A stretch of DNA of 64,000 nucleotides from Raillietiella orientalis (Eukaryota). The notes beneath the pieces are model-generated. The model saw nothing but the letters and a program-made list of their open reading frames with translations. It was not told the DNA's origin and searched no databases. Location: assembly GCA_036172245.1 (NCBI GenBank), contig JAYWIR010000004.1:310001-374000 (forward strand), written 5' to 3'. Every line of letters starts with the position of its first letter. Position 1 is the stretch's first letter. This document shows, piece after piece, positions 18,111 to 63,346 of the stretch. Both the position numbers and the translations under genes were made by a program.

Positions 18111-19203
18111 TTAGTCCTCATCATCGGGTAAATGGGACGGGTCGATCCTGAGCTCGTCCAGGGTCTCGTTGAGCCTGGCAAGGAACCACTGCGAGGCCTC
18201 GATGCGCTCCTGCAGGACGGAACCCAGCTGCACCAACAGCCCTCCCGCGCTGTCCTGGAGGGTCTGCGACGCGAGGTTGCGGAGGATGTTGAAGAAGGTC
18301 TCCGTGAGGGAGCTGGTGCCCTGCCTCTCGGCGAGCGCCTGGTCCCGGAAGGAACGGAGCACGGTCAGCAGCGTCCTCGTCTCCTCCGAAGTCGCGTTCG
18401 AGGACCTCAGGACGCACGAGCGGTGGCTGCGGAAGCGGCACGCCAGCGCCTCGGGGTCGAAATAGAGAGGGTAGGGGCACTGCAGGCGGTACAGCCTGCT
18501 CTGGGAGCAGCGGTAGAAGGAGGCGCAGTCGATGGGGTCGCTCCTGAGGGGGGGAGAGAAGGAGCAGGGCTCTTTCTTCTCGGAGGCGGCGCCCGCGGGT
18601 GGTGGGGCTGCAGGTGACCTGGAACGGGAGATCGCGAGAGGCCCGACGCTTTTTGCTGGAGGCAGTGCGTCAGGTTAGCAAGACGGCCGGCGTGACCCAC
18701 CCAAAGCAGGGGGGGGAGCGGAGCAAGGAAAGCGCGGAGAGCAACCTCACTCTTGTCCCCCAAGGGGGACAAGAGTGAGGATCTTCCGAGGGGGACGCAA
18801 GCCTTAGTCAGCAGGGGTGCCAGATCCCAGCCGGGACAGGTCGAAAACGGCTTACCACAGCGACGAGGACGAGCAGTTCACTTCCGAGGGCAGGTCGCAT
18901 ATGCGGAGGGCGAGGTTGAAGATCAACGGGCGGGGGCAGGAGAACACTGCCGCTTTCCGGTCGTGGCACAGGTGGAACTCTGAGCACGAGCCGGAGAAGA
19001 AGGGGTTCGCGTCTCTGCTACCGGACGTGCACTCCCTCAGGAACCGGGAGTATGCCTGACCCCATTCCTCTGCAGGCGGGACTCCTCCTCCTTCGGGTCC
19101 TTTCCCCGGGACTGGGTGGGGCGCGCCGTTGCTTGCCGTCTCGGTGCCCGACCTCGGAGCGGCAGCGGCCGCCGCAAAGAGGAAAACGCTCAAGTGCAAA
19201 ATC
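18111..19203 (-). CDS. Cluster gene A: secreted protein, signal peptide + 2 CBM14 (peritrophin-A) domains + C-terminal helical domain (exons 2-3; ~286 aa with first exon)
   Basis: Exon 19203-18856 (ttccag|G ... TG|GTAAG) encodes ILHLSVFLFAAAAAAP...CTSGSRDANPFFSGSCSEFHLCHDRKAAVFSCPRPLIFNLALRICDLPSEVNC. Exon 18618-18111 (ttccag|G) continues in frame with CSFSPPLRSDPIDCASFYRCSQSRLYRLQCPYPLYFDPEALACRFRSHRSC and then LLTVLRSFRDQALAERQ...RLNETLDEL. AATAAA at 18062-18057. Confidence 0.88.
18745..18780. repeat. Perfect 17-bp inverted repeat in an intron of gene A
   Basis: cctcactcttgtccccc-aa-gggggacaagagtgagg. Confidence 0.9.
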
Positions 19204-22200
19204 CTGGAAGACCGAGAGACTACGTCGTTTCCTTGGCAAGAATTTTGTTTTCTTCTTCCTTCCTTTGGAGAGGGGGGAAGAGAAAAGGGGATGAGAAAGG
19301 GATAGGGAGTCGTCTGGATCCTCTGGTGAGGTAAAGGCGTCACTGAAATGCACACTCACAGCATGTACGTGTATATACATGTATATACATGTACGTGAAT
19401 ACGAAAGGAGATTTTCTGGTCAGCGCCGGACCGAACATCACAGAATACCTCAAAGCTGCCCCCCTGAGTTTCCTTGCTGATCTGCGTGGTTTAGCCGATC
19501 GCCCTTCGAGTGTGCACTATTTGGTAGCCAGATGACCTGAGCACCCATCTATGCGTACACGCCCGCGTACGCATAAAACACACACGCACGCACACACACC
19601 CGTCCACTCCATACACCCCTCGAGGAAAAGAGACGTCTTTCCTAGCGGGAGCAGTCTAGAAGATTCCGAGCTCGCATCACTGAGGGAAACACCTAAAAAA
19701 TCCCTCCCGGCTGAGCGCACGAGACGTCTGGTTCCTGCAGCGATCGCCGACGGAAGAGGAACGAATGCCGTTGGTCAACGGGACGGTAAAGGTTTTCCAA
19801 GTGGCAGCGCTGACCGGTAATGCCCCATTCGGAGCTCGCTGGGTCGACTCGTGCACCTACGGGCAGGCGGGGTCCTGCGCACTGCCTTGCTGTTTCTAGC
19901 GCTGGCACCCGAAGCGTAGATGCCGGCGTCAAGAAGACGTTCCGGGGAAAAAGACTCCCAAGCGTGCGATCAGAGAGATGCAGTGGAGATGATGATCCGC
20001 ACCAACGGATTATCGCGAAAGGATGCCACCCCTTTTTTTGGTGAGGGGGGGGGGGCTTCGAAGGCGGAATTCTTTACTGGATAAACATGTTCCGGTAGCA
20101 GTTAAATGCACGCGCCAGGGCAGCTGAACAACAGCAAACTGCCCTCTCAGCAGCAGCAGGGACGCGAGCCATCTCTGCCGACAGCCTCAATGCAAGAAGC
20201 TCGCACGCTGTACCCATGCTCCTCATTCTTGAGATGAAGAGGAAGGAAAAGTCACGGTGCCTTTCTTTCTTTTTTCGGAAGTGTTGCTCCTGTTCCCAAC
20301 AGATGAGTCACCCCTGTCCATCCGGACCTAGGACACCCTGAACAAGAGTCCTTTGCAAGTTAACGATCTATCCCTGCAAAACAGGCATTCTTAAGAAGTA
20401 GCTGGAGTTCGGACAGTCCTGACTTGTGCGCCTCACGAAGGGGAAGAACGCGTCTGGAATGAACTGAGATAGAAAAGTGCTAGGACCTTGTTACACGAGA
20501 CTGAGTCTACCGAAAGCCACCAGATACATGATTCGTGTGGTCTTTACAATCTTGTCGTTCTTACACCAAAATGTTTCTACGGAAGACGTACTTTGCCTCA
20601 TTTCATGTGTTTTCTTTGTGCTTTCTTACACGACTTCAGGCTTAGCGTAGGTTGGGGTGGGCTGGGAAGGTTATGTGCTCAGTTTCGCAAATCTTGGTAA
20701 TTGTGCTGGAGAGCGCGCCCATTCTGGATAGCAACGCTCACCTAAGCTCTGCTGTGAGTTTCGGCTGCAGCTCGAGAATAATGACGTCCTTCCTACAAGT
20801 ACTGATTCCCCTACACACCTGGAACCGCTCAGCCAGAAAGATTGCCTCAGGATCCACACCTTTCAGGGTTCATTGCAACAAGAGCATTGCGAAAGTGAGA
20901 TCAATTTTTCCAACGCGGAAATGACCCCCTGCTTGGGATGCACGGTGGACTCTTGTTGGAGGAGGTGTTGTCGGCGCTGTTCAGTTCCGACAACTGAATA
21001 ACGCGTGATTTCAAGAGTTCTGGAGAACGCTTCTTCCAGGGAATGGAGCTCAACGTCACTGTCTCTGAGTACGACTGGCTCCACTGCTAAGCCATCTTGT
21101 TTGAGCAGTCGTTAGCAGCAAGAAGGTTCCAGAGAAGCCTTCTCGAACGCTGCCTTACCCGTCCGCAAAGGAGAAGACATCTTGCTCCGAAGGACAGCGA
21201 GGAAAACTGGACAGAGGACGAATTCTCGTCAGCAGTGAGTCGGTCCTAATCACTTCTTGCTTTCCTCTACGCGAAGGCACACTCTTTCCGAAGCCGCACG
21301 CACATCTCAGCGGATGTTTTCACCCGAGATGCTCGAAAAGCATCGGGGAGGCTGAGCGTGCGATTTTTCGATTCCGCACGCTTGCCGACAGGTCGAGACA
21401 GGGTGCGCTCTCGGAGCTCCCGGGTCATCACCGGAGGTTCTGTGGACCGGGAAGAGAAGTGTTCGACGAGGTGTACGCAACACAGAAGGCGGTGCATAAG
21501 AAGACCGTCGTCTCCCGTTGGAGGGGAACACAGCCGCGTGAAGGAACAACGATCCTCAGCAGCTGCTGGATGCAGCAACGGAAGACTGCTGAAGGACCGG
21601 AAAAGATTTAATGTGTGCAGCTTCGAGTGATCCCACTTCGGATATAAAAAAAAAAAAAAAAAAAACTACGAATCACAATTGCTGAACCTTCGCCATTCGG
21701 TTTCCCGTAATTCTGATTGAACGCATTTTGGCGGAATTTCTGTTGACCCTTACTACGTCATAGACTATTGTATTTTATTGCTATTCCATGCATTTATAGT
21801 AGTCATGAACTGAAGCGTATCTGCATTTCTAATATGCAGTTATAAAGATTATGTAAATTGCCGTGCGTAATACAGAATTATCTGGATAAACAGTGATGAT
21901 TTCAGTTGAATTGAATGGAGCCTTTTATGGATACATTTTTATATATGCATATATAAAAATGGATTGCAAATGTTCTAAAATGGCATTCAGGAGTTTCCCC
22001 TTACTTCTCCACTCACGTTCTGTAAGGAAGAAAAATTCTTTTTGGGATTTCTATGGTAGAATGAACACACGTAGACGTGCTTATTCTACCCAAGTGACGA
22101 TCATGTGAAGGAGAGGTCTTGCTCTATAAGAAGTGATCCCATTAGTGGAGCCGTCCAGGATGACCGCGAAAACAAATCGAAGAGAAAGCGATGGTAGAGA

Positions 22201-22928
22201 GGACCCTTCATGACAGAAAAAGGAGTGATAAAGAAAAAAATAGGGAATTCCAGAGCTGGACTTGGGCACGAAATCTCCTAGTACGTTGGAGAATTATCGT
22301 TTGAGTTCTTCGAGTCTTCGGTTGCCGTACTCGATGAATGTTGAGAAGGCTGTTGTTTTTCAGACGGTCATGTTTCCCTCCGGCGGAAGACGACACTGTT
22401 CGCCCCGAACATGCTTTCTCTATTGCGTCTCCATCGAACAGTTTCTCCCGGCAGGGAGAGAGGACGCCGGCGATGATTACCCGGCAGTTTCGAGAGCGCG
22501 CCCGAACACCGGAAGTTTGCCAAAAGTCCCCTGTGCCGGAAGTGCCAAAGAGCCTCGTGCAAGAATTTCGAAGATTCGGCGTTCGCATTCCCTTCTTTTT
22601 AGCTCACGAGAGACCTGTGCTGTTTGCAGATTGGCAGGGTTTTCAAACAAGCATCTCTCATCTCACTCTCGAAAGGAAAAGTTCCTCGAAGGCACCTCTG
22701 GGACGCATGAGGAAGAGCTAAGCTCTGCGCCGGACCACACAAACTCCATCCCCCACTCGCATGACCATTACGAAAGGCAAAACATTGCACACCCAGTTGT
22801 TGCTGCTACTATTCTGGTCTTTCAAGAAAAATACTAAGCGGCTTGCTCTGTTCGAGAAAATGACGCTAGTGGTTGCAGCTTTACGCTGGTCGAGAAGAAA
22901 TGCGAAGGGTATGAATTGAATTTCTTAC

Positions 22929-22933
22929 CTCAT
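22929..22933 (-). CDS. Candidate 5-nt coding first exon (ATGAG|GTAAGA) of gene A
   Basis: Same ATGAG|GT micro-exon as in the paralogs, strong donor, A at -3, and TCAGTT (Inr-like) ~30 nt upstream; gives MR-ILHLSVFLF. Alternative candidate: ATGCT|GTGAGT at 19364-19360. Confidence 0.5.
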
Positions 22934-33129: not shown

Positions 33130-35219
33130 CTAGCTCTGGAGGACGTTGAGGGTGGTGTTGAGACGCCTGAGGAAGGTCTGCGTGTTGTCGATGCGGGTCT
33201 GCAGGATCTGCCCCAGCTGGTCGAGGACTCCGGCGGCCCTGTCGCGGATGGCCTGGGTCGCGTAAGCTCCTATGTCGCGCAGCAGGATGAGCAGCAGGGA
33301 GGTGGCGTCCTGCCGCTCCTCCATGACGTCCTTGTCCAGGCTCTGGACGGCGGCCAGGAGCGAGTGGAGGTTGCCAGGGTGCAGCTGGATGGGCGGATCC
33401 TCCGTGCAGCCCGGGTCGCGGGGAACGTCGCAGGCCTGCAGCTTCTCGTCGAAGCTGAGCAGCGGGGGGCACTGGTAGAGGTACTCGACGCCGTTGTGGC
33501 ACTGGTAGAAGAGGGAGCAGTTGTGGGGGTCCCTCAGGAACTGCCTCTCGCTTCGGAGCAGGCAGCGTGTGCTCTGGCGGACCAGCTGAGCGCCGTCATC
33601 GTCCTGGAGACCATGACCTCCCTCTTCGGGGGCCGGTTCCGTTCCCGAACCGTCCACCTCGCCGCTTCCGGCCGCGTCCACATTGCCGGGAGCTTGCTTG
33701 CCGTCCGCGGTGTCGATTTTCAGGGAGCGCAATTTGAAGTTTTCCGGGTGGTCCTCAGAGGCGGGCTGGAACTTGCCCTTCGTCGCGGGCCTAGCAGCTG
33801 AATCCTGTCTGCTGTAGAAGGACGGGAGCCCCCTGGGAAGTGGAGAGAGGCATTCGCCCGTGGCCCGGAGCACTCAAGAGAAACGAGTGTTCGCAACCCC
33901 TCTGCGGGGAAAGGAGAAATGGAAGAGGGAGGAAGGAGGAGAAAGAAAAGGAAGGGAGCAGAGAAGAGGAGGAGGTGATGCTGACCGACAGAATGGGGAT
34001 CGAGAGAACAAGAGTGGGCCTTGCAGCAGAATCTCACCTGCCAAAAGAGCAGTTGACGTTGGTCGGGAAGTCGCAGACGCTCTTGTTCTCGTTAAAGTGC
34101 AGGCCCGGAGGACACAAGAGCTTCCAGGCGACCCCACTGTCGCACATGTAGAACTCCTCGCACCGGAAGGGGTGAGGCAGGAAGCGTGTGTAGTTCCCGT
34201 TCGTGTCGGGACACTGCTTGGACATCTCAACAGAGCGCACGGACAAGTAATCGGCCAAGTTCTCCCTGGACACGGTTAAGTCTGGTCGGTCCCTCGCAGC
34301 GGACCCGTTGTTCTGCTTCCCGGAGTCCTTCGATCCGACAGAGCTTCCCGCCATCAGCGCCGCCCACAGCACCAACAGGGTCCTGGAGGAGGCAGGCAGT
34401 CGGAGGCAGGAACAAGAGCGTCTCCAGCGGCTCCGACTGCTTCCGGACAGCTCGCCTTCCAGCGGGGCGGGCGAAGAGACCTGAGAGACTTCCGCGAGCC
34501 CTCTGGTTGCAGGGGAATCCCGAAAGGGGGCCCAACGATTCTCCTGGACGTTACGCTTTCCGCAATGCTCGGAGGGGAACTTCCACACAAGGGAATGCCC
34601 TCCCCGGGCCCGCAGCTCTTCGGCGACCCGCGAGCGGTGCTCACAGAGGACTCGTCGCACGCCAATTGTGGTCAGCAGGCAGGAAATGGAACGACCCGAC
34701 AGTGCCACTTCCTGTCATCTGGATCCTCGCCTCGAACCGCCTGGAGGCCTTTTTTTTCTTTGTTTCCTCCTATCTCCTCCCTCCCCTGACCCCAGGATCT
34801 TTCTTTCTCTACTGCGGTTTCCTCGAGGAGCCAACACTCCTAGGTTGCATTCAGGCCGAGAGCGAGAGGAGAAGAAACGCCCCCGCGACCTCCTCGGATC
34901 TCCGGCACAACCTTTCGGAGAGAACTGGAGCGCGCTGCCCTCAGAGTCGCCGGGAGAAGAGCAGGGGAAAAGGGGGGGAATCCCGGACCCTTTGCCACCA
35001 CCATCCGAGGTTCCTTTGGTCACCGCCCTCACGAGCCGTGACTGCACCCATGCGTACCGGTCTGCTCCCTCTCTTTCCTCGCCCACGGGGCAATGCGCTT
35101 GCAGCGCAGGAGGGGAAAAAAAATGTACCAGGGAGACCCCAACAGAATGACCCTCGTAAATCCAGCCCTGGGCAGAAGCCAGGGCTGCCCCTGTCCCTCC
35201 TCCTACCCACCTACCTCAT
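33130..35219 (-). CDS. Cluster gene B: secreted protein, signal peptide + 2 CBM14 + helical tail (~343 aa)
   Basis: Exons 35219-35215 (ATGAG|GTAGGT), 34382-34038, 33811-33130, all joined by phase-2 introns. MRTLLVLWAALMAGSSVG; CPDTNGNYTRFLPHPFRCEEFYMCDSGVAWKLLCPPGLHFNENKSVCDFPTNVNC; CLLRSERQFLRDPHNCSLFYQCHNGVEYLYQCPPLLSFDEKLQACDVPRDPGC; tail SLLAAVQS...RLNTTLNVLQS. AATAAA at 33092-33087. Confidence 0.92.
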
Positions 35220-37843: not shown

Positions 37844-40800
37844 TTACTGATCACTCTTGAAGACATTGTTGAGCTTATCCAGGATTGATATGGTAGAGTC
37901 CATGCGCTTCTTCAGAATGTTCTCTACGTCCAGTAGGCCGTCCAGTTGCCTGCTCTCTGTCCACTCGGAGGTGTCGTCACCTCCCTCCGGATCGTTCAAG
38001 AGGGCATCCAGTTTGTTGTATGCATGGAACTGGTCTGCCAGCAGCTGCCTGCGGACCGTCTGCGTGACGAACAGAAGGAATTGCAGGTCGTTCGGGATTT
38101 TCTTTTCGGACTTAAGCAGCGTGCAGCTGCTACTCTCCGGCTTCAGGCAGAGCTGCAGATCTTCGTCGAAGTGAAGGCCGTCGGGGCACTTGAATGTGTA
38201 TTTGTTATTCCCGTCGAGCTGGTGGAAGACTTCACAGCTGCGTTCGTCACTTAGGAAACGAGTCGGTCCCGCCGAGCACTCCCCGTAAGAACTAACGTTC
38301 CCGTGGAGAATCTCTTGTGACCTGAAAGATTGCAGAGCTCAGTCTTACCCTCCTCGAACACCACCCTATCTCCTTCTCTCTCTTTGAGGGACACTCTCCC
38401 GACTAATAAGTGTTGTTTGGATAGCGGCCGACCTTCTGGAGAAAAATCAATACAGTCCTACGGGGAGAGGAGGGCGTCTTCTCTGAGAACGCTCTTCGGG
38501 CATAGAGGATTCGATGGAGTGGCCATAAAGGGTGAGGTCCCATTGTCAGTAGCGAACGCGGCAAAGCAGTTTAAATGCGAGCACCCGTCTGATGAACGCC
38601 ACCTCGAGATGGAAAATTTTGCTTTTGTCACCTTCTTGCATGGCTGCATCGCTGTTGATCAAGGAAAGGCGCAGACGTGGTTGGTTCTAGTGAAACTGCT
38701 GCACTGGCTGTCGCCTAGTGCGCAGGGTAGAGTCGCGTCCCCACCAACCCGTTGTTCGTCACTCGGGAATTTTTCCGAGTCACACATGATAAGGTGAAGG
38801 TCGCTTTGGAAACGGTGGAGGGCAAGCAGGACTTCCACGGCTGATCGACCCCTTGGATGCCCTATCAGTTGAAGTTCCCCAAGAGGGTCACGAGAGCAAA
38901 GATCCATTTTCCAGAGATGTTGAGATGCCAATCAGAGAAGAAGATCCGGATTTTCCGTGGAATTTTTCTGGGTTGCTCCAGGGAATAAAGTTTCGAAAAA
39001 TTGTCCTAGTGGAGAGATCAACCTCTGATCCGGTTCACTCTGAAGTCTCGCGCTTCTTCGGCCACTTGATATACTGCAACTTTTTGCAGCTCTCCGAACA
39101 CTGCTGAATTTTCCTGTCAACAAAAGAAGACTAAGGTCACCTCATGCTTTCTTGTGGATGTTTTTCCCGCATGTGGTAACCATCGTGGTCAGCATAGCCA
39201 CCACCTGATGAAGACTTCGTGGTCGTGACCGACCTGGCTGACAAAGTGGATCGCGACCAAAGCTCGGAAAGAAACAGCCAGATCACTTCCCTCGAGGGCA
39301 TCTTTGAAGCAAAAGTCGCGAGGCATGAAGTTTGTATCGCACGGCAGGGATGTGTTAACCATCAAAAGAACTCCGAAGACTCTGCAAACAGGGAACCTCC
39401 CTCCCACTCAGCACACCGTAGAATCCGAGGAGTAAGCAAGCAGGTTCAGTGTGCAGCATGGGAGCAGTCACCAAGGAGTCGCTCCCTCGAAAAATCGCCC
39501 CAGAGTGGAAGACGAGATCAAGCCGGAGAATTACAGCGGAGAATTGAAATGCCCAAAGGAGAAGCTGTTTTGGCTGAGTGGCGGCTGGACTTTGTTCCCG
39601 GTGGTTTCGGAAGCCGCAAAGATCTCGTCATGGAGTCGCGCCCGCGCTCCGAGGAAGAGCGCGGATTCCCTGAGATTCTCCGAAAGACCCGGAAAAATCC
39701 AGAGTCGGAAACAAGCAGAGCCACCGGTCTCAGTTTCAACCTCTTGACGGCGGGCTTGGGATGAAGTTCCTTGAGGATCGATGCACGCCAGGACTTGCAA
39801 TAGGGAGCCCAACTACTACTCATTCCTTCTTCTTCTGTCCTCCTGTTCCTCAGCAGAGTAAGCACCACCTTCTTTAGGAGAACAAGAGAAAGAATCCTCG
39901 ACAGCTGATTTCTCGCTGGATATAGTCAGACTCAGACTATTCCTCGGAGAGGTCTTCATCCAACACAAGGCCGCTGTGCAAGTGGCAGACAGGACCAGGT
40001 TCTTTTGCGATGTCTCGAAATCCGTCAAGGAGGAATTGGAGGCTTGGATGCAGTTCCGAAAGCGTTTCAGTGACGAAGAAAGCCGCGAGAGTAGGTGGAA
40101 GAGGTCGCTTTCTTCATCAGCCCTTCGACAGAAGGATCCCGTCCCCAGCTCAAAACCAAAGCCCAGAAGACCCTCAGACGAACTCGTAAGCGACTCGGAA
40201 TTTAAAATGCCAGGATCACCTTCCCTACGTGTGTGTGTGCATGGCACAATCTCCAGGGACGTGGAAACCGTCTCTGGGGTTATGCATTATCAGTAACGGA
40301 TACTTCTCTCGGGAACATGGCACTTCCCGACGGAAGCAGCAGTCCCGGGACCTTAGGGTAGCCACTCACCCCTGAGGAGTCTCGCAGTTGGTCCTGGAAG
40401 TGAGGTGGTTGCATATTCTGAAGAAACAATCGAAGTTGTAAGAAGTCGGGCATTCCTGCTTGTACGCGGTGCCGTCTATGCAAACGTAGTAGTTCCTGCA
40501 ATTATCTCTGTCCGCGACCAGGACAGGAAACCTGGAATTTTGAGGACAAGAGGCAGCACCTTCGTCGAGGTTGTTTCTCAAGTCAGTTTCCAAAGGGAAG
40601 TAACTCAGTAATTCGTCCGGGTCGTTTCCTGAAGAGTCTGCCTCCGGAGACTCCCTTAGGGAATATGGACCCGAGGAGACTTTGGAAGCAATGAAGAGGA
40701 CTGTCACGAAGAACCTAGGTCACAGAAAAAGTGCGAGTTAGAATACAACACTCGGCTACAGACTTCGAACAGGCAGCGATGACTCACGCACCGGGGCAGG

Positions 40801-41898
40801 AAACGGAAGCATCCCCCCCCCCGATCGAAGAAACCCGCTTTTTTAAGCACTCTCGGACCTCTGTCTGTAGCACACGCGTTTGACGGCACGATCGTGCGAA
40901 TGCGGGATGCAGCAGCAGATAGATCTCCAGGGAAAAGCCGGCGGAACAGTGGTGCCTGCAATGGTCAGCACCGCTCCAAAGCAGTGCGAATGTATGAGTT
41001 TGGAGGGGATAGTAGCAAATCTCCTGGAGCAAGGAAGCGGCGTCGGTTTCGTCTCTGCACTCTCCTTTAACACAGAGTGCATATTGAGGGCGGCTTTCGT
41101 ACTCCGTATACGTAGTACTTCTGACATCCGTCCGTAAATGTGGATCGCGTGTTGCTCAAAGGGAGACGGAGTTCCGCACGGTTAGTCACCTCCGCATATG
41201 AAGGGAATTGGAGAAGCTGCCGAGGAAAACAGCACTTATCGTGAGAAAGAGTACTTCTGGACGCTTTTTGGCCGGTCCCGGATTCTTCGTTCCTCTTTCG
41301 CAGGAAGCATACGAAGTTCGTCAAAGACTGAAGACAGAGACTTGGAGAAAGTTGGCACGTTTCTCCCGTCCCTTGGAAAGACCCCAAAGAGAGTTCAACT
41401 CGTTTGAAAAGCTTCTTTTTAATTCCATCTTTCCTTGCCGTCCAGAGCAACCTCATGCTGGAAGCGCGTGAACAGGCGCACGGTCTCCGCAAGCCACATG
41501 AACGCACCTCTGGTGAGCAGTTCCAGCCTGCGCAAGCCCACAGCCGACCGGAAGGTACGATGGTCGCTGGTTCGCCCGCTACGGCGAGAGCCAGCTCTCT
41601 GCGAAAGGCAACGCAGGAAGAACGAAAAAGATCACTATGTCGCCAACAAAGGCGCTCGGCGAGCGCCAGCGACTTTGGCGCGCGCGTGTCATGCGACGCG
41701 GAGCCGGAAAAATGCCAGGTCCCTTCGTAGCGACGCACTTCGTGTCTCAACCCACGGAAGGACGCGGGACACCACTCCGAACGCGGACTCTACGGGTAAC
41801 TTTCGGGAATCCGTGACCCCGGACCATGCCCCCTTCTATGCCCCCTTCTGTTTCTTCCTTCCCGGAAATAGATAAAATATAGAAACGTCCTACCTCAT
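37844..41898 (-). CDS. Cluster gene F: secreted protein, signal peptide + 2 CBM14 (7-Cys and 5-Cys variants) + helical tail (~275 aa)
   Basis: Exons 41898-41894 (ATGAG|GTAGGA), 40714-40370 (FFVTVLFIASKVSS...CPQNSRFPVLVADRDNCRNYYVCIDGTAYKQECPTSYNFDCFFRICNHLTSRTNC), 38321-37844 (absent from the ORF track; CSAGPTRFLSDERSCEVFHQLDGNNKYTFKCPDGLHFDEDLQLCLKPESSSC...ENILKKRMDSTISILDKLNNVFKSDQ*). Phases match. AATAAA at 37838-37833. Confidence 0.82.
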
Positions 41899-45724: not shown

Positions 45725-48473
45725 CTACTGGACCCCGTGGAGGGTGCTGTTCAGGCGGTCCAGGAAGTAGTGAGTGGCGTCGATGCGGTCTTGAAGGCCC
45801 TTGCCGATCTGGCTGAAGATGGACGACGCCCGCTCTCCGATGGCCTGCGAGGCGAACGATCTCAGGTCGCGGATGAGGGCAGTCAGCAGGGAGGAGGTGG
45901 TCTGTCTCTCGGCCCGGATCTGTTCATGGAAGGAGCGGACGGCTGCGAGGAGCGACTGGTCGAAAGCATCGCTGCCCCCGCCGTGGGCCAAGTCATCGTC
46001 GCACTTCTCCTCGAACACCACGTCGCACGTCTGACGGATCTCGTTGAACTGCAGTAGCGGGGGGCATTCATAGACGTACTGCACCCCTTGCTGGCACTGG
46101 TAGAAGAGTCTGCAGTTGATGGGGTGTCTGCGGAACCTGGTCTCCGACAGGTTGAGGCACAGGCCCTCCACGGAGCTCGACAGATTCCCAGAAACCGTGA
46201 CGGTGGAATTCTTCCTGAAAGACCAATGGTTCTCTTGTAAAGCAAGAAAAAAAAAAATCTGATTCTGTCCCCCTTTTCTTGCTGGAGAGATCAGGAAAGG
46301 TTCCTGGGTCCGCCTAGAGGCAGGGGGGGAGTAAGCCGAAGACTTCGGGGGAAGCTTTGGGAGCTTCCTCGAATGTCATTGGGTCTCGGTTGCAATGCAT
46401 TTCGAATCTCCTAGCATCTGCACTCAAGAGCAGATACAGATACAGACCCTCCTCCCACCAGACAATTGTCTTGACTAATTCCCCGCTCCTTGCCTTCCAG
46501 GACTCTTCAGTGAATGGGAGTGAAGAGAAAGGCGCAGGGATCTCCGAAGAAAATGGACAGAAAAAAAAAGCACGAAAGCTTGTCCTGCCTATGAGGACTT
46601 CCAATCTGAGAAGCCATCCAGGGAACATCGTCCTGTTCAAGGTCGTCTTTTCTTACTCTTCCAAAGACAAAGCACCGCTCTACGAAGACCGCACCCCGAC
46701 TAGCTATCGGACTCTTGGAGCGCAGGCTCATCCGTTCACGGTTCTCGCCATACAAGAAGTCCTTCTCAACAAGGGAGACCTTTCTTCTCCTTTCCAGTCA
46801 CGGGACCCCCCCCCCCCCTCCGGCACATTTCCCCTAACTCACTTCAGATTACACTTGGCGGATTCGGGAGCATCGCAAATCTGCCTCTTGACATTGAAAT
46901 GCAGCCCCTGAGGACACGTCGCGTGGTAGGTGACCCCGGAAACGCAAAGGCGGTATCGATCGCAGGAGTACTCGTTGGCGTGGGCGTAGGGGTGGTCCCG
47001 CGGCTCGCATGACTTCGAATCCTGAGAGGGAGAGACAAACAAGTAGGCACCATCCGTGAGCGGTCCTTCATCCCAAGGATGGAGAGTAGGGGGAGACGCG
47101 AAGGAGCGGCACAGTCGCTTACCGCATTGGTCTTCCCTTCAGCTTCCTCGGACTTGCCTGGAGGAGGAGACTTCTTCCCGGGAGCCTTCTTCTTGGTCTG
47201 AGCGTCGCTGGAAGCTGAGACTGTCAGCAACACCAGCATCAGAACCAGCAGGTTGGGTGTCGTGGGACCCATCCTACAAGAGGCAGAAGCTGAGTTCTGC
47301 TCCCGGCCGCTTCCTGAGAAGCAGATCGGACGAAACGATCCCCTTGCTCCCCATGTTGCCCGCCAGGAGCCACTCGTCTCTCTGATTGGGAGAGCCAACC
47401 ACTGCTACCGCGAGGCGTGGGCGCCGCTGCCCGCCATCAGCAGGTGCCAAAAATCTACCCGCTTCCTTTTCTCTCCCGACGACGAGACGAAGGAGCAGGA
47501 AGGGACGGCAGTGGTCCCCTTGAAGAACTTCCATCACGAAGAAGATCGCAAGGGGTGATCTTAAAACATAGGAGCGAAGGATCATCCCCCAACCCCTGCT
47601 CCCTGAGCGCTCCCTATCCGTCGGAGGTGAAGCCTATTCCGGCAGCGCGAGGGCTCATGCCCCCTCACCCTCTTCTATTCCCCGGACCGGCAGCAGCTCC
47701 TTGTTCAAGTTCTGTTGTCCGCTGTGGAGGAAGGGGGTCAAATTTTCCTCGATCCCCCTTTCTCCATGGTTCTCTTTTTGGTCCTCCTCCACCCCATTCC
47801 TGCCGTGGGTGAGCACTCCGGAGTTCTCCGCGCGGAATCGACCTGCTTCCTGGGGGAACCGCCAGGCACCTCTCCGCAGCGGTGGCAGAACGTGGCGAGC
47901 GCAAACCTCCTCGAGGGACTGCTGCTCAAGCACGCAGTACTTCTGCGTCCTGGCTGAGCGCGCATCCGTGGAAGCCAGCGTTACCTCCTCAAAGCAGACT
48001 GCGGCAGGAGAAAGAGAGAGAGAGAGAGAAAGGAGGGGGCGCAGAAGGCGGAAAACGGAAGAAGAAAAAAAAATAACAGAAAAGCCTCTCACGCACAGGG
48101 CGGAACTTCTGGGAGGCTCTCCTCCTCCCTCCGCTGAGCCGCACCGTCGCCACGCGGGCGAGAGCAGCATCGAGAGAGAGGGACGCAGAGCGGCCGCGGT
48201 GCCAACCTCGCGGAACCACCGACCGACCGCTCCGAGTGCCCGCGCACACGCCCCCTGCGAGGAAGCCATCGTGGCGGGCGCGTAAAGCGCGGTGCTGTGC
48301 TCACCTTGCCTGCACCGGGTTCCCGCCCACCCCCTCTCTTTCTGGCGGCGACGGCGGCGACGCCACCCGCGGGGCACGGGACACTCCCAACACGGACACA
48401 CTCCCGAAGGAGGGGAGGGGGAGGAGGGGGCGAGGAAGGAAGGGAAAGAAAGAAAAAAAGACCCTTACCTCAT
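45725..48473 (-). CDS. Cluster gene C: secreted protein, signal peptide + 2 CBM14 + helical tail (~274 aa)
   Basis: Exons 48473-48469 (ATGAG|GTAAGG), 47273-47123, 47021-46843, 46214-45725; intron phases 2, 0, 2 are consistent. LLVLMLVLLTVSASSDA; CEPRDHPYAHANEYSCDRYRLCVSGVTYHATCPQGLHFNVKRQICDAPESAKC; CLNLSETRFRRHPINCRLFYQCQQGVQYVYECPPLLQFNEIRQTCDVVFEEKC; tail SLLAAVRSFHEQIRAERQ...RLNSTL. Confidence 0.92.
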
Positions 48474-49011
48474 CCTGGAGACAAACGGAAACTCGGGTGT
48501 CGCTCGCATACGCGCAACCCTGGCACTCCCCACGGCTCCTCCGGAATTCCGCGGAGAGGAAAAGGTCAACGCCCTGAGCTAGCGGTTGGACTCGGCGTCC
48601 ATCCCGAGTCAACGCTCCGTCCGGACGCTCCCGGGCCTTCCCAGCAAGGGGAATACTCAGGCACACAGAGCGCGCTCCCTCCCCCCTTCCCTGCCCGTGG
48701 CCCTACACGCCCTTTCCACGGGTCGATTCTTCATGCTTCTGCCGCCGCCGCCCCGCCCGCCCACCTCCAGCACCTCCCGAAAAAGAGGCTGCTGCAGGAG
48801 TCGGATCGGAATTCCTCTCTCTTCTTTGTTCTCGGCTTCATTCGAGGGTCTCTTGGAAGGAATGACCTGTTCTCACCCGGTGGAGCCCCGTGTCTTTGAC
48901 CTCCGGCGGCAGCATCCTCCTCGGAACGCAAGGCAGCAGCCAGCGCAGAACCGAGGCGGGGAAAGGACGCGCGAGGATCCGTTCTCAGCCTGCACCGCAG
49001 ACCAAAGAGCC
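48474..49011. promoter_or_regulatory. Putative bidirectional promoter / 5'UTRs between head-to-head genes C and D
   Basis: Only 538 bp separate the two divergent ATG micro-exons; the interval is GC-rich and has TCATTC (Inr-like) on each strand around 48838-48865. Confidence 0.5.
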
Positions 49012-50309
49012 ATGAGGTGAGTTGCATCCTCTTTGTAAAGAAACGGCGAGTCGAGCCGTCGTCCGCGCGCTGCGGAACCCGTGACGCAGCGGCGTCTGGC
49101 AATGGCCATCGCGACTGAGGACGCTCTCCTCTCGATCCTTCATCGCGCCGTGCGCAACCGATGCGAAGTCCAACACCGTCCGACGCGCCATTGGGTCGCT
49201 GCTCTCTGAGCAGCAGCGCCGGGAGATGACCCCGAAAAGCAGCGCGTTGTCCTTCCCTTCACTGTTGTTTTTTTTTTCGTCCCTCTTGGGGCGGGAGGCG
49301 AAATCACTGATCGGGGGTCCCTCGCCGAGGGGGTAGTTGGAAGCCATGAAGGTACGTTGCTCTTTGTTTCCAGGTTGCCGTGCTTCCTGCTGATCTGCCT
49401 GTGCTCCGCGGTCCACTGCAGTACCATCTACAGGAGGAACGTGGAAAGCACCAACAACGCCACATGGCATGGTCGCGGCAAAAATCCAGCTGCCCCCTCC
49501 GATGCGGAAGTCTCCAAACTCTGTCCCAACGTAAACGGGCCTGAGCCCGTCTTCATCTCCAGCCCCTACTACTGCGAGGAATTCTTCATCTGCGACAACG
49601 GGGTCGCCTGGAGCCACATCTGCCCTGAGCCCCTGTACTTCAACCCGGGAAAGCAAGTCTGCGACTTCGCCTCCAACGTCGACTGCTCATCGCAGGCCAG
49701 GTAACGGAGGGGCGGCACGGAAATGCCCCCCCTCCGGCGGCGGCGGCTGGGAGGGCCGCGCCCGGATAAGGAGTCGCCTCACACCGCTCCGCCCCTTCCA
49801 GGAAACCCGCGTCCTTGCTCAAGGGCGAACAAACCTGCGAGGGGTCCGACGAGCTGCTGTTCTTCCGCTCGCCATCCGACTGCTCCTCCTTCTACCAGTG
49901 TCACGAAGGGTTCCAGCACACCTACAGCTGCCCTCAGGGCCTGGTTTTCGACGAGAACCTGCAGATCTGCTCCCGGGGCTCGGACTGCGACCTGAGGAGC
50001 GCTGGGACCGCCACCTTTGAGTCCTTGCCCTCCCGACCCAGCAACCAGGTCGTGATGAAGCTGGAGTCGCTCCGGAGGAACATGCGCTCCGACTTCCGCA
50101 ACAGATACAAAGTGCTGACCAACCTGGTCCGAGAAGCCAAAACGCGCCTCGACAGGCAACCCGATACGCAGAGTCGAATAGAGAATTACGTTACACGATT
50201 CCGAGAGTCTCTGTTAGATCAGATCCAGGGAACGCAGAAGCTGCTGACCGAGCTGTACGGAGTGCTGGTGGAGTGGAGAAACGCGCCCGGCAACCAGAAG
50301 TCTCAATAA
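49012..50309 (+). CDS. Cluster gene D: secreted protein, signal peptide + 2 CBM14 + helical tail (~279 aa)
   Basis: Exons 49012-49016 (ATGAG|GTGAGT), 49374-49700, 49802-50309. MRLPCFLLICLCSAVHC; CPNVNGPEPVFISSPYYCEEFFICDNGVAWSHICPEPLYFNPGKQVCDFASNVDC; CEGSDELLFFRSPSDCSSFYQCHEGFQHTYSCPQGLVFDENLQICSRGSDC; helical tail. AATAAA at 50305-50310 overlaps the stop. Confidence 0.92.
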
Positions 50310-57618: not shown

Positions 57619-57670
57619 GAATCGACACGACAAATTCTTTTCTCTGCGAATCGACACGACAAATTCTTTT
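57619..57670 (+). repeat. Short direct duplication (29-bp period)
   Basis: gaatcgacacgacaaattctttt occurs twice. Confidence 0.85.
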
Positions 57671-58044
57671 AGTGGGCACCGTTATTATCCAGGTGATCCC
57701 TCAGCAGGAACTTTTGAATCGAACGTCGAAGCATCGGGATCAGCAGTGAACGACCCAAACAAAGAGCCTCCTCCGCCAACGTTACTTCGAGATAGCAACA
57801 ACGAAACTCTCTCAAGCGTGCTGGAAACACCTAGGTCACGGGAAGCTTGCGTTTTCTCATTGGAAAAGCCTCAAGCAGGTTGAACTAGGCAACCAATGAC
57901 CTTTTACTTCGAATCGAACACAGGATGCTCATTGAAGCAGGTCATTGAACTGGCGCAGGAGCGTTATTCTTTGTTTGCCTACCTTGGAGGGTAGTTTCCT
58001 CTCCTTTTCCTGTTCGATCTGGTGGTTCCTGGTGGTTCTTTGCG

Positions 58045-59366
58045 ATGAGGTAAGAAGAAGCTTTGGCTTTCTGTCCTTCCTGTTTCACTCCTCTCTTTTT
58101 TGACTGAGCATCGTCGAGAATCCTGTGAGGGTTTTTCGCGTTCTTTTCCGCAGACCATCTTTCGAGTAGCTTGAGCGAGCGTTTGCGGAAGAAATCCGCA
58201 GGATGTCCTAAGAGTAGCGGCGATCGGAAAGACAAGAGCACCTCGTTCTGAGGTTCCGGTGTGTTACAAGAACTTGTGATTCGCGTGCTCTCCTGCCCTC
58301 GTTGCATGCGCCATACGGAAACCGTCTCTTCCAAAGTGTTACTGACCCTCCTTCCCGCCGTAAACAGGAAATGGCAGCAGCAGCGGTGGCTTGGTTACGG
58401 GAAATCCGGAGATTAATGTGTGCGGCATTACTGCGCGGATTACTGCACTCTGCATTATCTGCGGGATGCAGAGTGACGCCCCTGCCGGTCTCCGTTCTCC
58501 CCTCTAAGGGGGTCCATCCGAGGGCAGTTGGATGACTTTCCCCCAGACGCGGTGCAGCTCCGGAGTCTGGTTGAGAACGGTTGCCCGTCAACGCGCCCTC
58601 ACTGAACTTTCCGCGATGTTTCCGCAAGAGGGTGGCCTCCCTCGGAGGCAAGGATCCTCCGCCAAGGGCAAATGCTCCAGTTTGGAGAGGGGCGGATCTG
58701 AAAAGCAGCTCCCTTTTCCTAGGATCTCCTTATTGATTTCCTGCCTGATGGTAGTCGCCCTGGACGTGACAATGGGCTACCGCCTGGAGAACGATGAGTC
58801 CGCCGAGCAGCCAGACCTGAAGCTGCCACCCATCTTAAAGAACCCGAGGTACGCGGCCGAGAGTTTGGCCCCTCTCTCTTTCCTCGCGTGACGGCGGACA
58901 TTCTTGCAGGAACAGGAACTCCCGAGGTAACTGCGAGTCCTCGAGCGAGCAGGAGTTCTTCCGCGAGCCGGACAAGTGCTCCCACTTCTACCAGTGCCAC
59001 CAGGGCAGCAAGCTGAGCTTCCAGTGCCCCGAAGGCCTGCATTTCGACGAGGAGCTGCAGATCTGCGACGACCCAAGGACCGCGGGATGCAACGTGGAAA
59101 GGGCGCCTCCCCTCAGCGAGAACATGCAGAACCTGCTGGACCTGGTCCAGAATCTGCGTAGCCAGGTGCGCGCGGAGCGCCACCGCACGTCCACCCTCCT
59201 GGAGTCCCTGATTTACGACATTACCAACAACCCGGGAGAAGCCTCAGCGTCCAGCACCTCCGAGGTGCTCGACCAGCTAACCAACATCCTCAACAGACGT
59301 ATCCAGAGGACGCGCGATATCCTGAACAGCATCAGCAAGCAGATCGCAGAGGAACGCTCCCAGTGA
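58045..59366 (+). CDS. Cluster gene E: secreted protein, signal peptide + single CBM14 + helical tail (~195 aa)
   Basis: Exons 58045-58049 (ATGAG|GTAAGA), 58723-58848 (ISLLISCLMVVALDVTMG...), 58910-59366 (CESSSEQEFFREPDKCSHFYQCHQGSKLSFQCPEGLHFDEELQICDDPRTAGC...NLLDLVQNLRSQVRAERHRTSTLLESLIYDI...EVLDQLTNILNRRIQRT). AATAAA at 59370-59375. Confidence 0.88.
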
Positions 59367-61539
59367 GTCAATAAACGTGAGGAGCAGTGCCGTCATACGG
59401 ATCGGTCGTCCTGTCCTCGGGAACGCGCAACTCGCACCATTCCTCGTATCATCGTCCTACCTGTTGGGGAGCGAGTCAGAGTCGCTCGAAGCCGGCTGTC
59501 GGAGGCTCTAGCACCCCTTTCCTGCTTCTCCGAAGAGCGTGCGGACAGTGGCTCCCTGCGCTCTTCCTGCTGCCGAGTACCGCCGTGTGCGACTCCCTGA
59601 TGGCAGTCACCCTGCAGCACGTCGCGGTCTCGCCCTTACCTAGCCCTACTCTTTCCTTTTCGATCTTTCCTACCTCTCCAGTGGCTTTCAAGGGATGCCT
59701 GCGTGACACGTGAAGGAAAAGGACGGCCGAAGGATTTCTCTTCGGCTCTCTATCCCACCCGAGACCGTAAGCCACTGGCTCCGGCGATCGGGCAGTCAGT
59801 CGGCACTCTCCAGGTTGTCTCCCTGTCGGAGCTACGGTCATTTTGAAAGAACTGGCTCCAATCCCCCGTCTAGAGGGGCATGAGCGCCCTCGGGGTCGAC
59901 CTTGAGCAGGCTCTACCGAACAGCTGCGCTCTCCCCTACTGCCTCGCGTTGTTGCCACGCTGACGCGTCCTTCCGCGCTCTCCAGGGACGAAAGGAGATT
60001 CCAGGAAAGATCACCTGCAGCTCCTTCCAGGTGGATCACCTCTTCGGCCTGTCACCCTTGGGGGCGAACCCTCGCACCCGAACTTCTCGAGCCGCCCTCG
60101 AGCGATCGGTCATCAGGAGGAGGAAGCGGAACGCGCGTGTCGGAGGCCTTGTGATTAAGGCTTCCACGCGTGGCACCATGCCTCGCGGGTTCGAATACTC
60201 CGGCAGAAACTGACGCCACTTCGCCGTTGGGTTCCGAGTTTCTCCTGCAATGGCACTGGTTGGCATAATCATGCGGACGTGGCACCGGCGGTGGATTAAG
60301 CCGGAGGTCCCCGATGAAGGCCGGAACAATGGGAGTCGACCTTCGGGTCCTTCCAGAAATAAAGGAGTGGGGAGTTACCCCTCCGGTCGTGCAACGGAGA
60401 GCGGACCCCCGACCGGGGGACCCCTCCGGTTTCAAGATGGAGCAGGAGCCCTCACGGGCACCTCTCCAGTTGTTCAAAGAAGCGGACCCTCCCTGTTGCA
60501 GGGGACCCTCCGAGTCGCCATCTCTCCAGAAGAGTGCAAGGAAGCAAGCGAGAGCGATTCCCTGCGAGAAGCTGCAGCGCCCCTTCTGAATTTCGGAAGC
60601 GTCCCTTCGGGGTTCTCTTCAGAGTGAACAGAAGCGGTTCCCTTGCGGGTTCCCTCTGGAGAGGAAATTCCTAATAGCGGATCCTCTCCGAGTTCCCTTC
60701 GGAGAAGATGAAATGGAGAATACCACCCCCCATCCAGGGGGATCCCTTTCCAAGCGTGAGAGGAACGGACTCGAGCCCTTCCTGGATTCATAGGGCGGAC
60801 CTCCATCCCGGAGTGTCCCCTATCCTGAAGAATTACACGCCCCCCTGCGGGGTTGTCGCAGGGGAGAGGCGTGAAAACAAAACTGTTTAAAAGAGCCTCA
60901 GAGTACTTAGCGAACCAAAAAAAAAAGAAAGCTCTTAAAAAAAAAACAAAAGCTGGAAGGAAAATAGCGAAGACAGAAGAAAAAGTACCCAAGGATTTCC
61001 ATCATCCTAGCAGTGCGCGCCACCAATCAGCAGTCTCTCCTGTTTTCCTTCCTCTTTTTCTCCCCCCACCCCAGCTCCTTTATTCCCACCGCTCCCCCTA
61101 AGGAGGGAGATCTGGGGTGCGGCACAGCAAGAGAGTGGACCGCACCCAGAGGATGGTTTCCCTCCTTCCTAGGATGCGGGGGAGGAGAGGCGGCAGCCTA
61201 TCTCCACAGTACCCGCTGGTGGGTGGAATCCGAGCCGTCGTAGCGGCAGGAGAGCGGCAACCCTGCTGATGACCTCGTGGCGGCAACACAGGCAGCGTCC
61301 GCGCACTGAGGTCTTCGCGAGAGAGGAGGTCCTGCGACGGCGGAGGCCCAAGTGGTGTCGGCCCACTGCGCGCCTAGGCAACAAAGTGAAGGGAGGATTC
61401 GGATCGCTTGTCTCTGGCTCGTTTATTGTTCTCCGGAGACGCTGGGGCTCCCGCGAGCCGTCTCGTCGGAGACGTGCCGTAGTTCCTCGCCGGTGTTCGG
61501 CTTGTCTTTCGGGGGATGACGATCGTCCTCCGACTGCCC

Positions 61540-63346
61540 TCACGACGCCGAGGTGGAGCTCACCGAGTCGCTCGTCGTGGCACCGCCTGCCCTGGAAGAC
61601 ACGCGTAGGTATGAGCGAAGGACGCAACCTGCACCGGCGCCACCCCTAACTAGAGGGCCGCGTGCCCGCTCTGTTCCACCTCACGATGGACCCGAGAGGA
61701 GGACGGGAGGGAGGGAGGGAAGAACGGGAAGGAGACACTTCTCCTCCGACACACGCCATCCGGTTTCGCTCTGGAGTCTTCACGAGCCTTCGGACATCAT
61801 CTAGGAAACGTTCCGGAAAGTAGGGAGGAAAAGCAGTAGGTGCAGATCTTCCTCCGGTTCAGTCTCTTTCTTTCTCGACTTCGGCATTGAGGCTGCTCTG
61901 GTCTCCAGGAAGCGGTGCTCTGGGGCGCTCCGCGGCAGGCTGGTGCAACCCACAGTTGAAGCCAGCGCCATGGTCAGGGGGTGCGCTTCTTCCCTTCCTC
62001 GGTGGAAAGGATCTGTGGTCGCGTGGACAGGGACCACAAGGGTCGGAAGGACCCTCTGAGAGGAAAGGGTGGACAGTATTAGCAAAGGTAGATGAAGAGC
62101 ACTCTGAACCACAGGGATCTTTCCCTCTCCGACCTCTGGTCGCGCGCTTTACCCAGGAACGCCGCAACTCCGTCCGCGTTTCCTGGAAACCTATCCGAGT
62201 TCTTCTTTGCCTTGTCTTTTTCAAAGAAACCTGCGAAACTCACTCGATCGGTGGACAATGTGGATGGTTTGTGGATCGAGGAGGGGGGGAACTCTTTTTC
62301 CCGAGGAAAGGAAGGGACCTTGGCGCTGCGCTTTCGTGATCCCATGGAACCTGAGAGTCTCAGTAGACCCCGATGGGGGGATCCCTGGAGATTCCACTGA
62401 TCTTATTGGGCTCCCTTGAAGCCTAGCGCGCCAACGGGTCACAACCTTTCCCTCTCGGAGGGCAGGGTAAGGGAGGGGGGGGGGGGAAGCGAGTCGCGTG
62501 CGTCCTCGAGACACCTCTGCCTTTCCCTCATTCCCGTATGGGGCTGGGGAGCAGCAGACCATTGGGCGGCAGGAGCTTCGAAGGACAGGAGCAGGGGAAG
62601 GGGGGGGGGGGCGAATGCGTGATCCACAACCTCACCTGCTGGCCCGGATGCAGTTCTCTGGCCCCGCGCCGAACACACAGATGCCCCTCTCGCCGTCGAA
62701 GGTCATCTGGAATGGGCACCTTATCCTGAACCCGTAGCTTCCGATGCACACGAAGAAGTATCGGCAGTTGCCCAGATCCTGGACGACCCGGGGGAAGAGC
62801 GAGTCGTTGGGACACCTATTGGACGGTGCGAACAGGTACGGCGTCGTCGTCGTCTGTTGCGGCTGCCTGTTGTCCTCGGTGTTCAAGGAGACGGTTCCAT
62901 TGACAGCCTTGGGCGGCGGAGTCGCGGAAGTGGCTGCCGCTGCCTTGGTGGTGGCGTTCGATGCCGTCGCGTTGCCCTCGCCGGGCGACGGAGTCGCGGA
63001 GGTGGCTGCCGCTGCCCTGGTGGTGGCGTTCGGTGCCGTCGCGTTGCCCTCGCCGGGCAACGGAGTCGCGGAGGTGGCTGCGCTGCTGCTGTTGCTCCGG
63101 GTGATGTTAGCATTCTTCTCGAGAGCGTCCTTGGTTCCGCTTTCGCCACTTCCAAGCAAAGGTGGGCCCAAGGGCTGCGTCTCCATGTAGGGGGGCGCCT
63201 TCTCCTGGAAGCGCTGCGGCGCCGACGGTGGCACGATTTCGTTGCTGCCCTCTGGCAGGCTGTTATCGTGCTTCCTCAGCTTGGTGGCGGCAAACGCGGC
63301 CTCATGTTGCAAGGCCGCCCCCACGAGCATCACCAGCCAGAACGTC
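61540..63346 (-). CDS. Cluster gene G: secreted mucin-like peritrophin, signal peptide + S/T/A-rich repeats + single CBM14 (first exon probably beyond the window)
   Basis: Exon 63346-62636 (ttcaag|G ACG TTC TGG CTG...; TFWLVMLVGAALQHEAAFA; CPNDSLFPRVVQDLGNCRYFFVCIGSYGFRIRCPFQMTFDGERGICVFGAGPENC; AG|GTGAG). Tentative terminal exon 61591-61540 (AGGATTSDSVSSTSAS*) followed by AATAAA at 61427-61422. Confidence 0.8.
62913..63081 (-). repeat. Coding tandem repeat, 72-nt (24-aa) unit, ~2.3 copies
   Basis: AATSATPLPGEGNATAPNATTRAA / AATSATPSPGEGNATASNATTKAA / AATSATPPP; two N-A-T sequons per unit. Confidence 0.9.

Follow-up and report, generated by a model that had tools for sequence, protein, structure and literature searches.

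A tandem gene cluster of candidate secreted chitin-binding proteins carrying a probable orphan helical hairpin in Raillietiella orientalis

We analysed a 64,000-nucleotide stretch of the genome of Raillietiella orientalis (contig JAYWIR010000004.1, positions 310,001 to 374,000 of the forward strand; referred to below as the window), with a focus on a cluster of seven intron-bearing genes that occupies 18.1-63.3 kb of it. Judged from its sequence, this cluster is a tandem family, probably lineage-restricted, of small secreted-type chitin-binding proteins that are diverged but intact, and six of the seven genes end in a C-terminal region, here called the tail, that directly follows a CBM14 (peritrophin-A) domain. 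The genes are labelled A, B, F, C, D, E, and G in their order along the window. In A, B, C, D, and F the predicted order is signal peptide, CBM14 domain, linker, second CBM14 domain, and tail; gene E has a signal peptide, a CBM14 domain, and a tail, and in gene G a hydrophobic N-terminus is followed by a repeat linker and a single CBM14 domain, the tail being absent. Where a gene has two CBM14 domains, we refer to them as CBM14-1 and CBM14-2. We believe that this is very probably a real, expressed protein family with a CBM14-tail architecture, and we regard the cluster as a well-defined candidate rather than a discovery.

Exactly 12 CBM14 domains (PF01607) were found in the window, and each scored above the Pfam gathering cut-off of 22.1 bits (24.1-52.6 bits). 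Of the open reading frames (ORFs) first submitted, 11 of 12 passed, and CBM14-1 of gene C scored 48 bits once the correct exon was used. A local CBM14 hidden Markov model (HMM), searched against all 1423 six-frame ORFs of at least 30 amino acids (aa), recovered the same 12 domains only, with the next match at E 0.2. A regular expression for the six-cysteine pattern, applied in six frames, matched 11 of the 12 domains, in the same places as the original prediction made for this DNA from its sequence; the domain missing from this set is CBM14-2 of gene F, which lacks the third cysteine. As an example of the spacing, CBM14-2 of gene B reads CX14CX5CX9CX12CX7C. Pairwise identity between the CBM14 domains of paralogues is 21-57%, and in the alignment all 12 keep an aromatic pair between Cys2 and Cys3 as well as a Phe after Cys4, residues that we take to have a role in binding. 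The AlphaFold2 (AF2) model of CBM14-2 of gene A is beta-rich, with a predicted local distance difference test score (pLDDT) of 70-86 over residues 1-50. When this part was compared by Foldseek with the solved structures of CHIT1 (5hbf/6so0), Der p 23 (4zce), tachycitin (1dqc), and Avr4 (4z4a), E values of 2.4e-3 to 6e-2 at a probability of 1.00 were obtained, and with a model that included the tail the CBM14 part alone was matched, Aplysia EHEP also being among the matches. By profile, all 12 are genuine CBM14 domains, and chitin binding is predicted for them. The original prediction had given all seven genes a signal peptide and six-cysteine CBM14 domains. Pfam, the HMM, and the regular expression bear out the domains, apart from the one cysteine in gene F; the signal peptides are a visual call, made wherever the N-terminus is hydrophobic, and for gene G no exon with a start codon was found within the window. 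A further correction concerns gene E, which carries only one CBM14 domain and has none in its second exon.

The six C-terminal regions align along their full length, with pairwise identities of 14-44% among paralogues. A tail HMM run over the window recovered exactly six tails (E 1e-32 to 1e-36), and the next match was at E 0.65. When each tail was left out of the profile in turn, those of C (E 9.5e-22), B (1.9e-19), A (1.2e-15), E (1.1e-14), and F (9.9e-8) were still recovered, but the tail of D was not (E 0.13, a value that a noise ORF equals). A profile alignment of the D tail with the other five using hhalign gave 76 colinear columns at 17% identity, which is marginal (E 0.0015). On these results, the tails of A, B, C, E, and F are homologous in sequence, and the D tail is probably homologous as well though strongly diverged, a view based on its exon, position, length, and helicity, and on the identity of D CBM14-2 to those of B and E (49-54%). 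The claim of six homologous tails thus stands firmly for five and marginally for the sixth. The expected size of about 75-80 aa describes the helical part (about 80 aa), whereas the distance from the last cysteine to the stop codon, which is the tail as we define it, is 91-106 aa, in comparison with 16-93 aa for the linkers between CBM14 domains.

Structure prediction agrees with the expectation that the tail is helical. For the exon of gene A that carries it, AF2 run with a six-sequence alignment placed the CBM14 domain first and then helices at residues 61-97 and 103-140 (mean pLDDT 67), and for the B tail alone it placed helices at 10-46 and 51-90 (mean pLDDT 80.2; predicted template modelling score 0.56). 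In each helix, hydrophobicity averaged by column is periodic, with a sharp maximum at 100 degrees. In 19 core columns ILMFVWY make up at least 80% of the residues; these columns mostly follow one another at intervals of 3-4, and their mean BLOSUM62 score is 2.17 versus 0.47 in the 70 others. The tails contain no cysteine, and their net charge is -1 to -7 in five of the six and +7 in D. Together, the models suggest an antiparallel, coiled-coil-like hairpin of two amphipathic helices of about 37-40 residues each. A structure search with the tail model returned only generic helical hairpins at Z scores of 8-10. The nearest, several of them taken from oligomers, were the designed homo-oligomers 5izs/5j73, prefoldin (1fxk/6vy1), and Nup58 (2osz), at Z 9-10, and further generic matches came from ESCRT-III and designed hetero-oligomers. 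Separately, we observed an N-x-T sequon at the same second-helix alignment position in the tails of A, B, and C, within a conserved L-N-x-T-L.

As had been suspected, the tail matches no assigned family in any of the resources that we searched. In Pfam, the six tails had no match at default settings, and at E values up to 10 there were nine weak families, each matching one of the six tails. A sequence profile search of the Protein Data Bank (PDB) gave nine weak helical matches, the best at E 0.017. Among 1.84 billion representative proteins the tail profile found no credible relative; the six proteins of the window are themselves absent from that set, so unannotated relatives would be invisible in it. 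Two matches in the same set (E 3e-6 and 2e-4) were judged spurious and compositional: each is a long protein that aligns in seven short segments, one with WASH-complex and the other with SH3BGR domains, which are unrelated. A word-indexed protein search with the CBM14-plus-tail exon of gene E gave no match among 20 candidates of near length, and with a six-sequence profile at longer lengths it gave five generic multi-CBM14 proteins in which 10-29% of the query was covered. In a protein atlas the tail alone had no usable match, and CBM14 plus tail was placed only with CBM14 clusters (0.76-0.81). Of 115 pattern matches to a single-protein query in metagenome contigs, none was confirmed, and annotated barnacle proteins included no match to the tail. 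In the literature, including the available portions of PMC4094399, PMC8917513, PMC3504105, and PMC7379184, we found no description of a CBM14 protein that ends in a coiled-coil or helical domain. The tail is therefore probably an orphan domain, a lineage-restricted addition to an older one, as far as can be judged from these sequence comparisons.

The gene models were built by GT-AG splice prediction with an intact ORF, and the six tail-bearing genes share one plan: a first coding exon of five bases, an exon for the N-terminus, and a last exon that holds a CBM14 domain and the tail. The middle exon encodes the hydrophobic N-terminus and CBM14-1 (in E, no CBM14), and the second intron is in phase 2 in all six. 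In each of them the tail lies in one uninterrupted exon and open frame with the preceding CBM14 domain and is followed by a stop. Since the two share one frame, the fusion of CBM14 to the tail needs no splicing, and the concern that tail exons might not be spliced to CBM14 exons is moot for this junction; the joining of the signal peptide and CBM14-1 exons to the last exon is predicted from GT-AG sites. The introns are 61-2048 nt long, and AATAAA or ATTAAA signals are present, features of a eukaryote and most likely of an animal. In A, B, D, E, and F the signal falls between -5 and +48 nt relative to the stop, and in C it comes 240 nt after it. By our own rough reckoning, such a hexamer would turn up by chance in 55 nt of GC-rich sequence in less than 1% of cases. 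Third codon positions in the tail exons are GC-rich (GC3 0.72-0.94). Ratios of nonsynonymous to synonymous substitution (dN/dS), calculated by the NG86 method for 15 pairs with CBM14 and tail split, were 0.47-1.6, at dS values of 0.45-2.07 that are saturated and GC3-biased. The paralogues had been expected to be diverged but kept intact by selection. Divergence and intact frames were found, and the constraint that we infer comes from these frames, the conserved tail length, and the conserved hydrophobic core only, as the saturated ratios do not speak to it.

We propose that the CBM14 modules would anchor each protein on chitin fibrils, and that the amphipathic, cysteine-free hairpin would pack its hydrophobic stripe on the hairpin of another copy or of a paralogue to form a non-covalent helical bundle. 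A mono- or bivalent binder would in this way gain the multivalency needed to cross-link or organise a chitin matrix, for example that of cuticle, gut lining, eggshell, or shell. Two-helix hairpins whose hydrophobic stripe is conserved are seldom stable alone and usually bury that stripe in a bundle, and self- or paralogue association is favoured for this reason. The tail also has the trait of coiled coils and helical bundles, namely long amphipathic helices with a hydrophobic spacing of 3-4, and it may form oligomers. We consider the chances slightly better than even that the tail is a protein-protein association module. That this association is self- or paralogue oligomerisation used for chitin cross-linking is a more tentative suggestion, for which we would not claim even odds, and we likewise put forward only tentatively the mechanism as a whole, in which non-covalent association would multiply chitin-binding valency and cross-link or order the fibrils.

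Several points weigh against this proposal. Self-association of the tail is a conjecture; a two-copy complex prediction (score 0.00, with the alignment not used, controls not run, and the chain's fold uncertain in at least one run) counts neither for it nor against it. The Z scores of 8-10 are below about 13, where helical matches exceed a common arrangement, and a hairpin of two helices would be just as able to attach to a lipid, a surface, or a different protein. The dN/dS values (0.47-1.6, with dS saturated) give no evidence of purifying selection. The divergence (14-18% identity, E 0.13) and basic charge (+7) of the D tail are such that its function may differ from that of the others. The original prediction had suggested a co-regulated set of subunits that oligomerise through the tail and cross-link chitin; co-regulation of the genes is conjectural, and the chitin structure that would be served is a guess.

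The hydrophobic stripe could also be read as a docking surface for a different partner, such as a matrix enzyme or a structural or mineral-nucleating protein, in which case the cluster would encode chitin-anchored adaptors. The stripe is amphipathic and conserved, some of the matched hairpin folds come from hetero-complexes (the designed heterodimer 6dmp, Cep63-Cep152 6csv, and the WAVE complex 3p8c), and the diverged surfaces of the paralogues (14-44% tail identity) would suit different partners. However, no candidate partner gene was found among 179 other ORFs of the window scanned with Pfam, where there was one weak sub-threshold match, and our present results do not distinguish homo- from hetero-association. 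We think this reading rather unlikely. As the fold matches of the CBM14 part include antimicrobial tachycitin (1dqc) and the fungal effector Avr4, we also considered tachycitin-like immune or barrier lectins, which would cover the gut lining or the chitin of fungi or parasites, with the tail as an effector or opsonic handle. Host-pathogen pressure would fit the strong divergence (21-57% identity for CBM14, 14-44% for tails) and pairwise dN/dS near 1, saturated as it is, but five of the six tails are acidic (-1 to -7), unlike cationic membrane-active helices, and the regular 3-4 spacing of the core suggests helix-helix packing over membrane insertion. An immune role is accordingly one that we consider distinctly unlikely. 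A lipid or surface binder similar to exchangeable apolipoproteins, which would tether chitin to lipid, a waxy layer, or a hydrophobic substratum, agrees with two long amphipathic helices, a strong moment at 100 degrees, the lack of cysteine, and the secreted context. Yet none of the six tails matched an apolipoprotein or lipid-binding Pfam family even at E values up to 10, and the hydrophobic face takes up 19 of 89 columns, a narrowness typical of coiled coils rather than of lipid-binding helices. Five tails being acidic and the core being this narrow and regular both argue against a membrane-active or lipid-binding helix, and we regard this reading as improbable. Finally, that the frames are accidents of GC-rich sequence or decaying pseudogenes is highly improbable, because although the region is GC-rich with long spurious ORFs on both strands and dN/dS is near 1, the cysteine framework is kept in all 12 domains bar one position in F, the six tail exons are intact over 435-470 nt, five stops are closely trailed by poly(A) signals, splice sites and intron phases are conserved, and the hydrophobic core is selectively conserved.

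A further possibility is that the tail is a recent orphan domain of one poorly sampled animal lineage that acts as a combinatorial assembly code, with the six diverged hairpins forming specific homo- and hetero-bundles through which a few small bivalent chitin binders would give a tunable non-covalent chitin-protein network. We offer this as speculation that is more likely wrong than right by a wide measure. Chitin matrices are organised by few known kinds of protein, and such a code, if true, would be a chitin organisation distinct from the Rebers-Riddiford, CPAP, and mucin-peritrophin solutions, just as a helical association module added to CBM14, if true, would be a further route to multivalent chitin binders. 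A compact, cysteine-free module may also be of use in chitin-based materials. The cluster shows cleanly an orphan domain that has been joined to an older one and amplified in tandem afterwards, and it provides a testable case for the origin of new extracellular matrix components.

The predicted gene structures are as follows, with exons given in the direction of transcription and a slash marking the end of a first exon. Gene A (18111..19364, minus strand) has a model of 286 aa with exons 19364-19360 (ATGCT/GT), 19203-18856, and 18618-18111. Pfam places its CBM14-1 at 18873-19031 (41.2 bits) and CBM14-2 at 18414-18566 (36.3 bits), and the tail is at 18114-18413 (tail HMM E 5e-34). An ATGAG/GT mini-exon at 22933-22929 on the same strand is an equally valid start, and the AATAAA/ATTAAA signal is 48 nt past the stop. 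In gene B (33130..35219, minus strand; 350 aa), exons 35219-35215 (ATGAG/GT), 34382-34038, and 33832-33130 encode CBM14-1 at 34049-34213 (42.4 bits), an acidic, Gly-rich inter-domain linker of 93 aa, CBM14-2 at 33406-33564 (45.9 bits), and the tail at 33133-33405, with the poly(A) signal 37 nt past the stop. For gene F (37844..41898, minus strand) the model is of 275 or 276 aa, as the first exon may be 41898-41894 (ATGAG/GT) or 41197-41190, followed by 40714-40370 and 38321-37844. Its CBM14-1, at 40384-40548, has seven cysteines (28.2 bits), CBM14-2 is at 38123-38278 (30.7 bits), the tail is at 37847-38122, and the poly(A) signal is 5 nt past the stop.

Gene C (45725..48473, minus strand) is modelled as 272 aa from the ATG at 47272, with exons 47272-47123, 47021-46843, and 46214-45725. 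Its CBM14-1 lies at 46851-47009 (the domain that scored 48 bits), CBM14-2 at 46001-46159 (38.4 bits), and the tail at 45728-46000, and an optional upstream ATGAG/GT mini-exon (48473-48469) is in phase with the acceptor at 47273. Its poly(A) signal is the distant one, 240 nt past the stop. On the plus strand, gene D (49012..50309; 279 aa) consists of exons 49012-49016 (ATGAG/GT), 49374-49700, and 49802-50309, with CBM14-1 at 49522-49686 (42.6 bits), CBM14-2 at 49836-49988 (42.2 bits), the divergent basic tail at 49989-50306, and an AATAAA that overlaps the stop. Gene E (58045..59366, plus strand; 195 aa) has exons 58045-58049 (ATGAG/GT), 58723-58848, and 58910-59366, of which the second encodes the signal peptide and a short linker and the third CBM14 (58932-59090, 52.6 bits) and the tail (59091-59363); the poly(A) signal is 3 nt past the stop.

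The model of gene G (62632..63345, minus strand) is partial and consists of one exon from an acceptor near 63345, with a CBM14 domain at 62650-62814 (24.1 bits in Pfam). The linker ahead of it is rich in Ser, Thr, Ala, and Asn and includes a 72-nt tandem repeat of 2.5 copies at 62911-63086 on the minus strand (94% matches). The repeat unit corresponds to 24 aa, rich in Ala, Thr, Ser, and Asn and with N-x-T sequons, and resembles a mucin-like spacer. The TGA at 62632-62634 overlaps a GT donor in phase 2, which is the phase of the conserved second intron of the paralogues, and the closest poly(A) signal is 1204 nt past this TGA. None of 14 candidate acceptors led to a convincing third exon. Gene G may have lost the exon for CBM14-2 and tail, or it may be spliced to an exon that we did not recognise.

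The ATGAG/GT first exon is used in B, D, E, and F and is available to C (48473) and A (22933); the scan for it covered B, C, D, E, and F, and for A we matched the site at 22933 to the modelled acceptor. The window contains the motif ATGAGGTR eight times, where 2.97 +/- 1.51 would be expected, and each of 100 shuffles gave fewer than eight. All sites (22933, 35219, 39145, 41898, 44410, and 48473 on the minus strand, and 49012 and 58045 on the plus strand) lie inside the cluster (22926-58052). Five are upstream of and in phase with signal-peptide exons, and one more could be used by gene A. No signal-peptide exon is evident downstream of the remaining two, at 39145 and 44410, which may be alternative or relic first exons. 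Apart from the ATGAGGT exon itself, no 7-mer shared as a promoter motif was found in the 300-nt regions that precede the first exons. The arrangement of C and D is head to head, with 538 bp between their first exons if C uses its mini-exon (48469-49016), which suggests a possible shared bidirectional promoter; no shared motif was found.

The window has a sharp compositional break at 16000, as the left 16 kb (1-16000) is AT-rich (35-44% GC) and the remainder (16000-64000) has 50-62% GC from about 16 kb onward, with the cluster on the GC-rich side. No convincing gene was found in the left 16 kb, and the GC-rich part contains many long spurious ORFs on both strands. An Rfam scan of the window gave no match. 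Pfam scanning of the 179 other ORFs (113 and 66 in two sets) gave the single weak match mentioned above, to CANIN (PF14816), in an ORF at 5520-5978 on the minus strand. It covers the end of the domain at 20.6 bits, with a cut-off of 25, and may be due to chance; no further exon of this ORF was found, nor any homologue in the word-indexed protein search.

The cluster can be compared with several groups of known chitin-binding proteins. As far as the available text of PMC3504105 goes, CPAP1 proteins (CPAP, cuticular proteins analogous to peritrophins) have one ChtBD2, another name for the CBM14 domain, with conservation confined to it; CPAP3 or obstructor (gasp) proteins have three N-terminal ChtBD2 joined by short, conserved linkers and then a C-terminus that is short and variable; and PMPs (peritrophic matrix proteins, or peritrophins, of arthropods) occur in the gut and consist of repeated ChtBD2, no other domain being identifiable in them. 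In its discussion, the non-CBM sequence of CPAP1 is thought to mediate protein-protein contacts. The available part of PMC7379184 gives five insect classes (CPAP1, CPAP3, PMP, chitinases, and chitin deacetylases), and that of PMC4094399 reports CBM14 and coiled-coil in separate proteins of the Lottia shell proteome. On these partial descriptions, two ChtBD2 together with a conserved helical hairpin fit none of the five insect classes. Like the proteins of the cluster, PMPs are secreted and have six-cysteine CBM14 modules, between which the linkers are short or mucin-like; a small mucin-peritrophin is what gene G resembles most. PMP genes also often occur in tandem clusters. The domain count is compatible with a PMP, but PMPs as described above have ChtBD2 only, whereas six genes of the cluster add a two-helix C-terminal domain of about 90 aa, and G alone fits. 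CPAP3 and CPAP1 share with the cluster the type of domain and a secreted role in the chitin matrix (predicted for the cluster), and CPAP1, as so described, likewise combines ChtBD2 with non-CBM sequence. CPAP3 differs, on the same description, in its three domains and short variable C-terminus, in contrast to two domains (one in E and G) and a long conserved C-terminus in the cluster, and CPAP1 differs in its single domain, as opposed to two in five of the six tail-bearing genes, and in that the tail of the cluster is conserved in five. The suggestion that signal peptide-CBM14-CBM14-hairpin is not a named family thus agrees with this comparison, as the arrangement fits neither CPAP1 nor CPAP3 within the limits of that text.

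Among small CBM14 proteins and domains of solved structure, the AF2 CBM14 part superposes on tachycitin, Der p 23/Der f 23, Blo t 12, the CHIT1 domain, and Avr4 at Foldseek probabilities of 0.97-1.00, in most cases with a root-mean-square deviation (rmsd) of 1.0-2.9 Å over 38-56 columns; for full-length CHIT1 chains the rmsd to this part is 5.5-5.9 Å. Unlike the cluster, these small proteins have no helical hairpin, and their identity to it is 16-30%. A more distant comparison can be made with matrilins, COMP/thrombospondins, and collectins, in which ligand-binding modules are combined with a short C-terminal helical module that raises valency. We detected no sequence relationship of the tail to those oligomerisation modules among the 1.84 billion representatives, in Pfam, or in PDB sequences, and they consist of single parallel helices that are often locked by disulfides, as opposed to the cysteine-free antiparallel hairpin of the cluster. 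By analogy, though, the logic is the same as the one that we propose here, in which a short helical module would raise the valency of a chitin binder.

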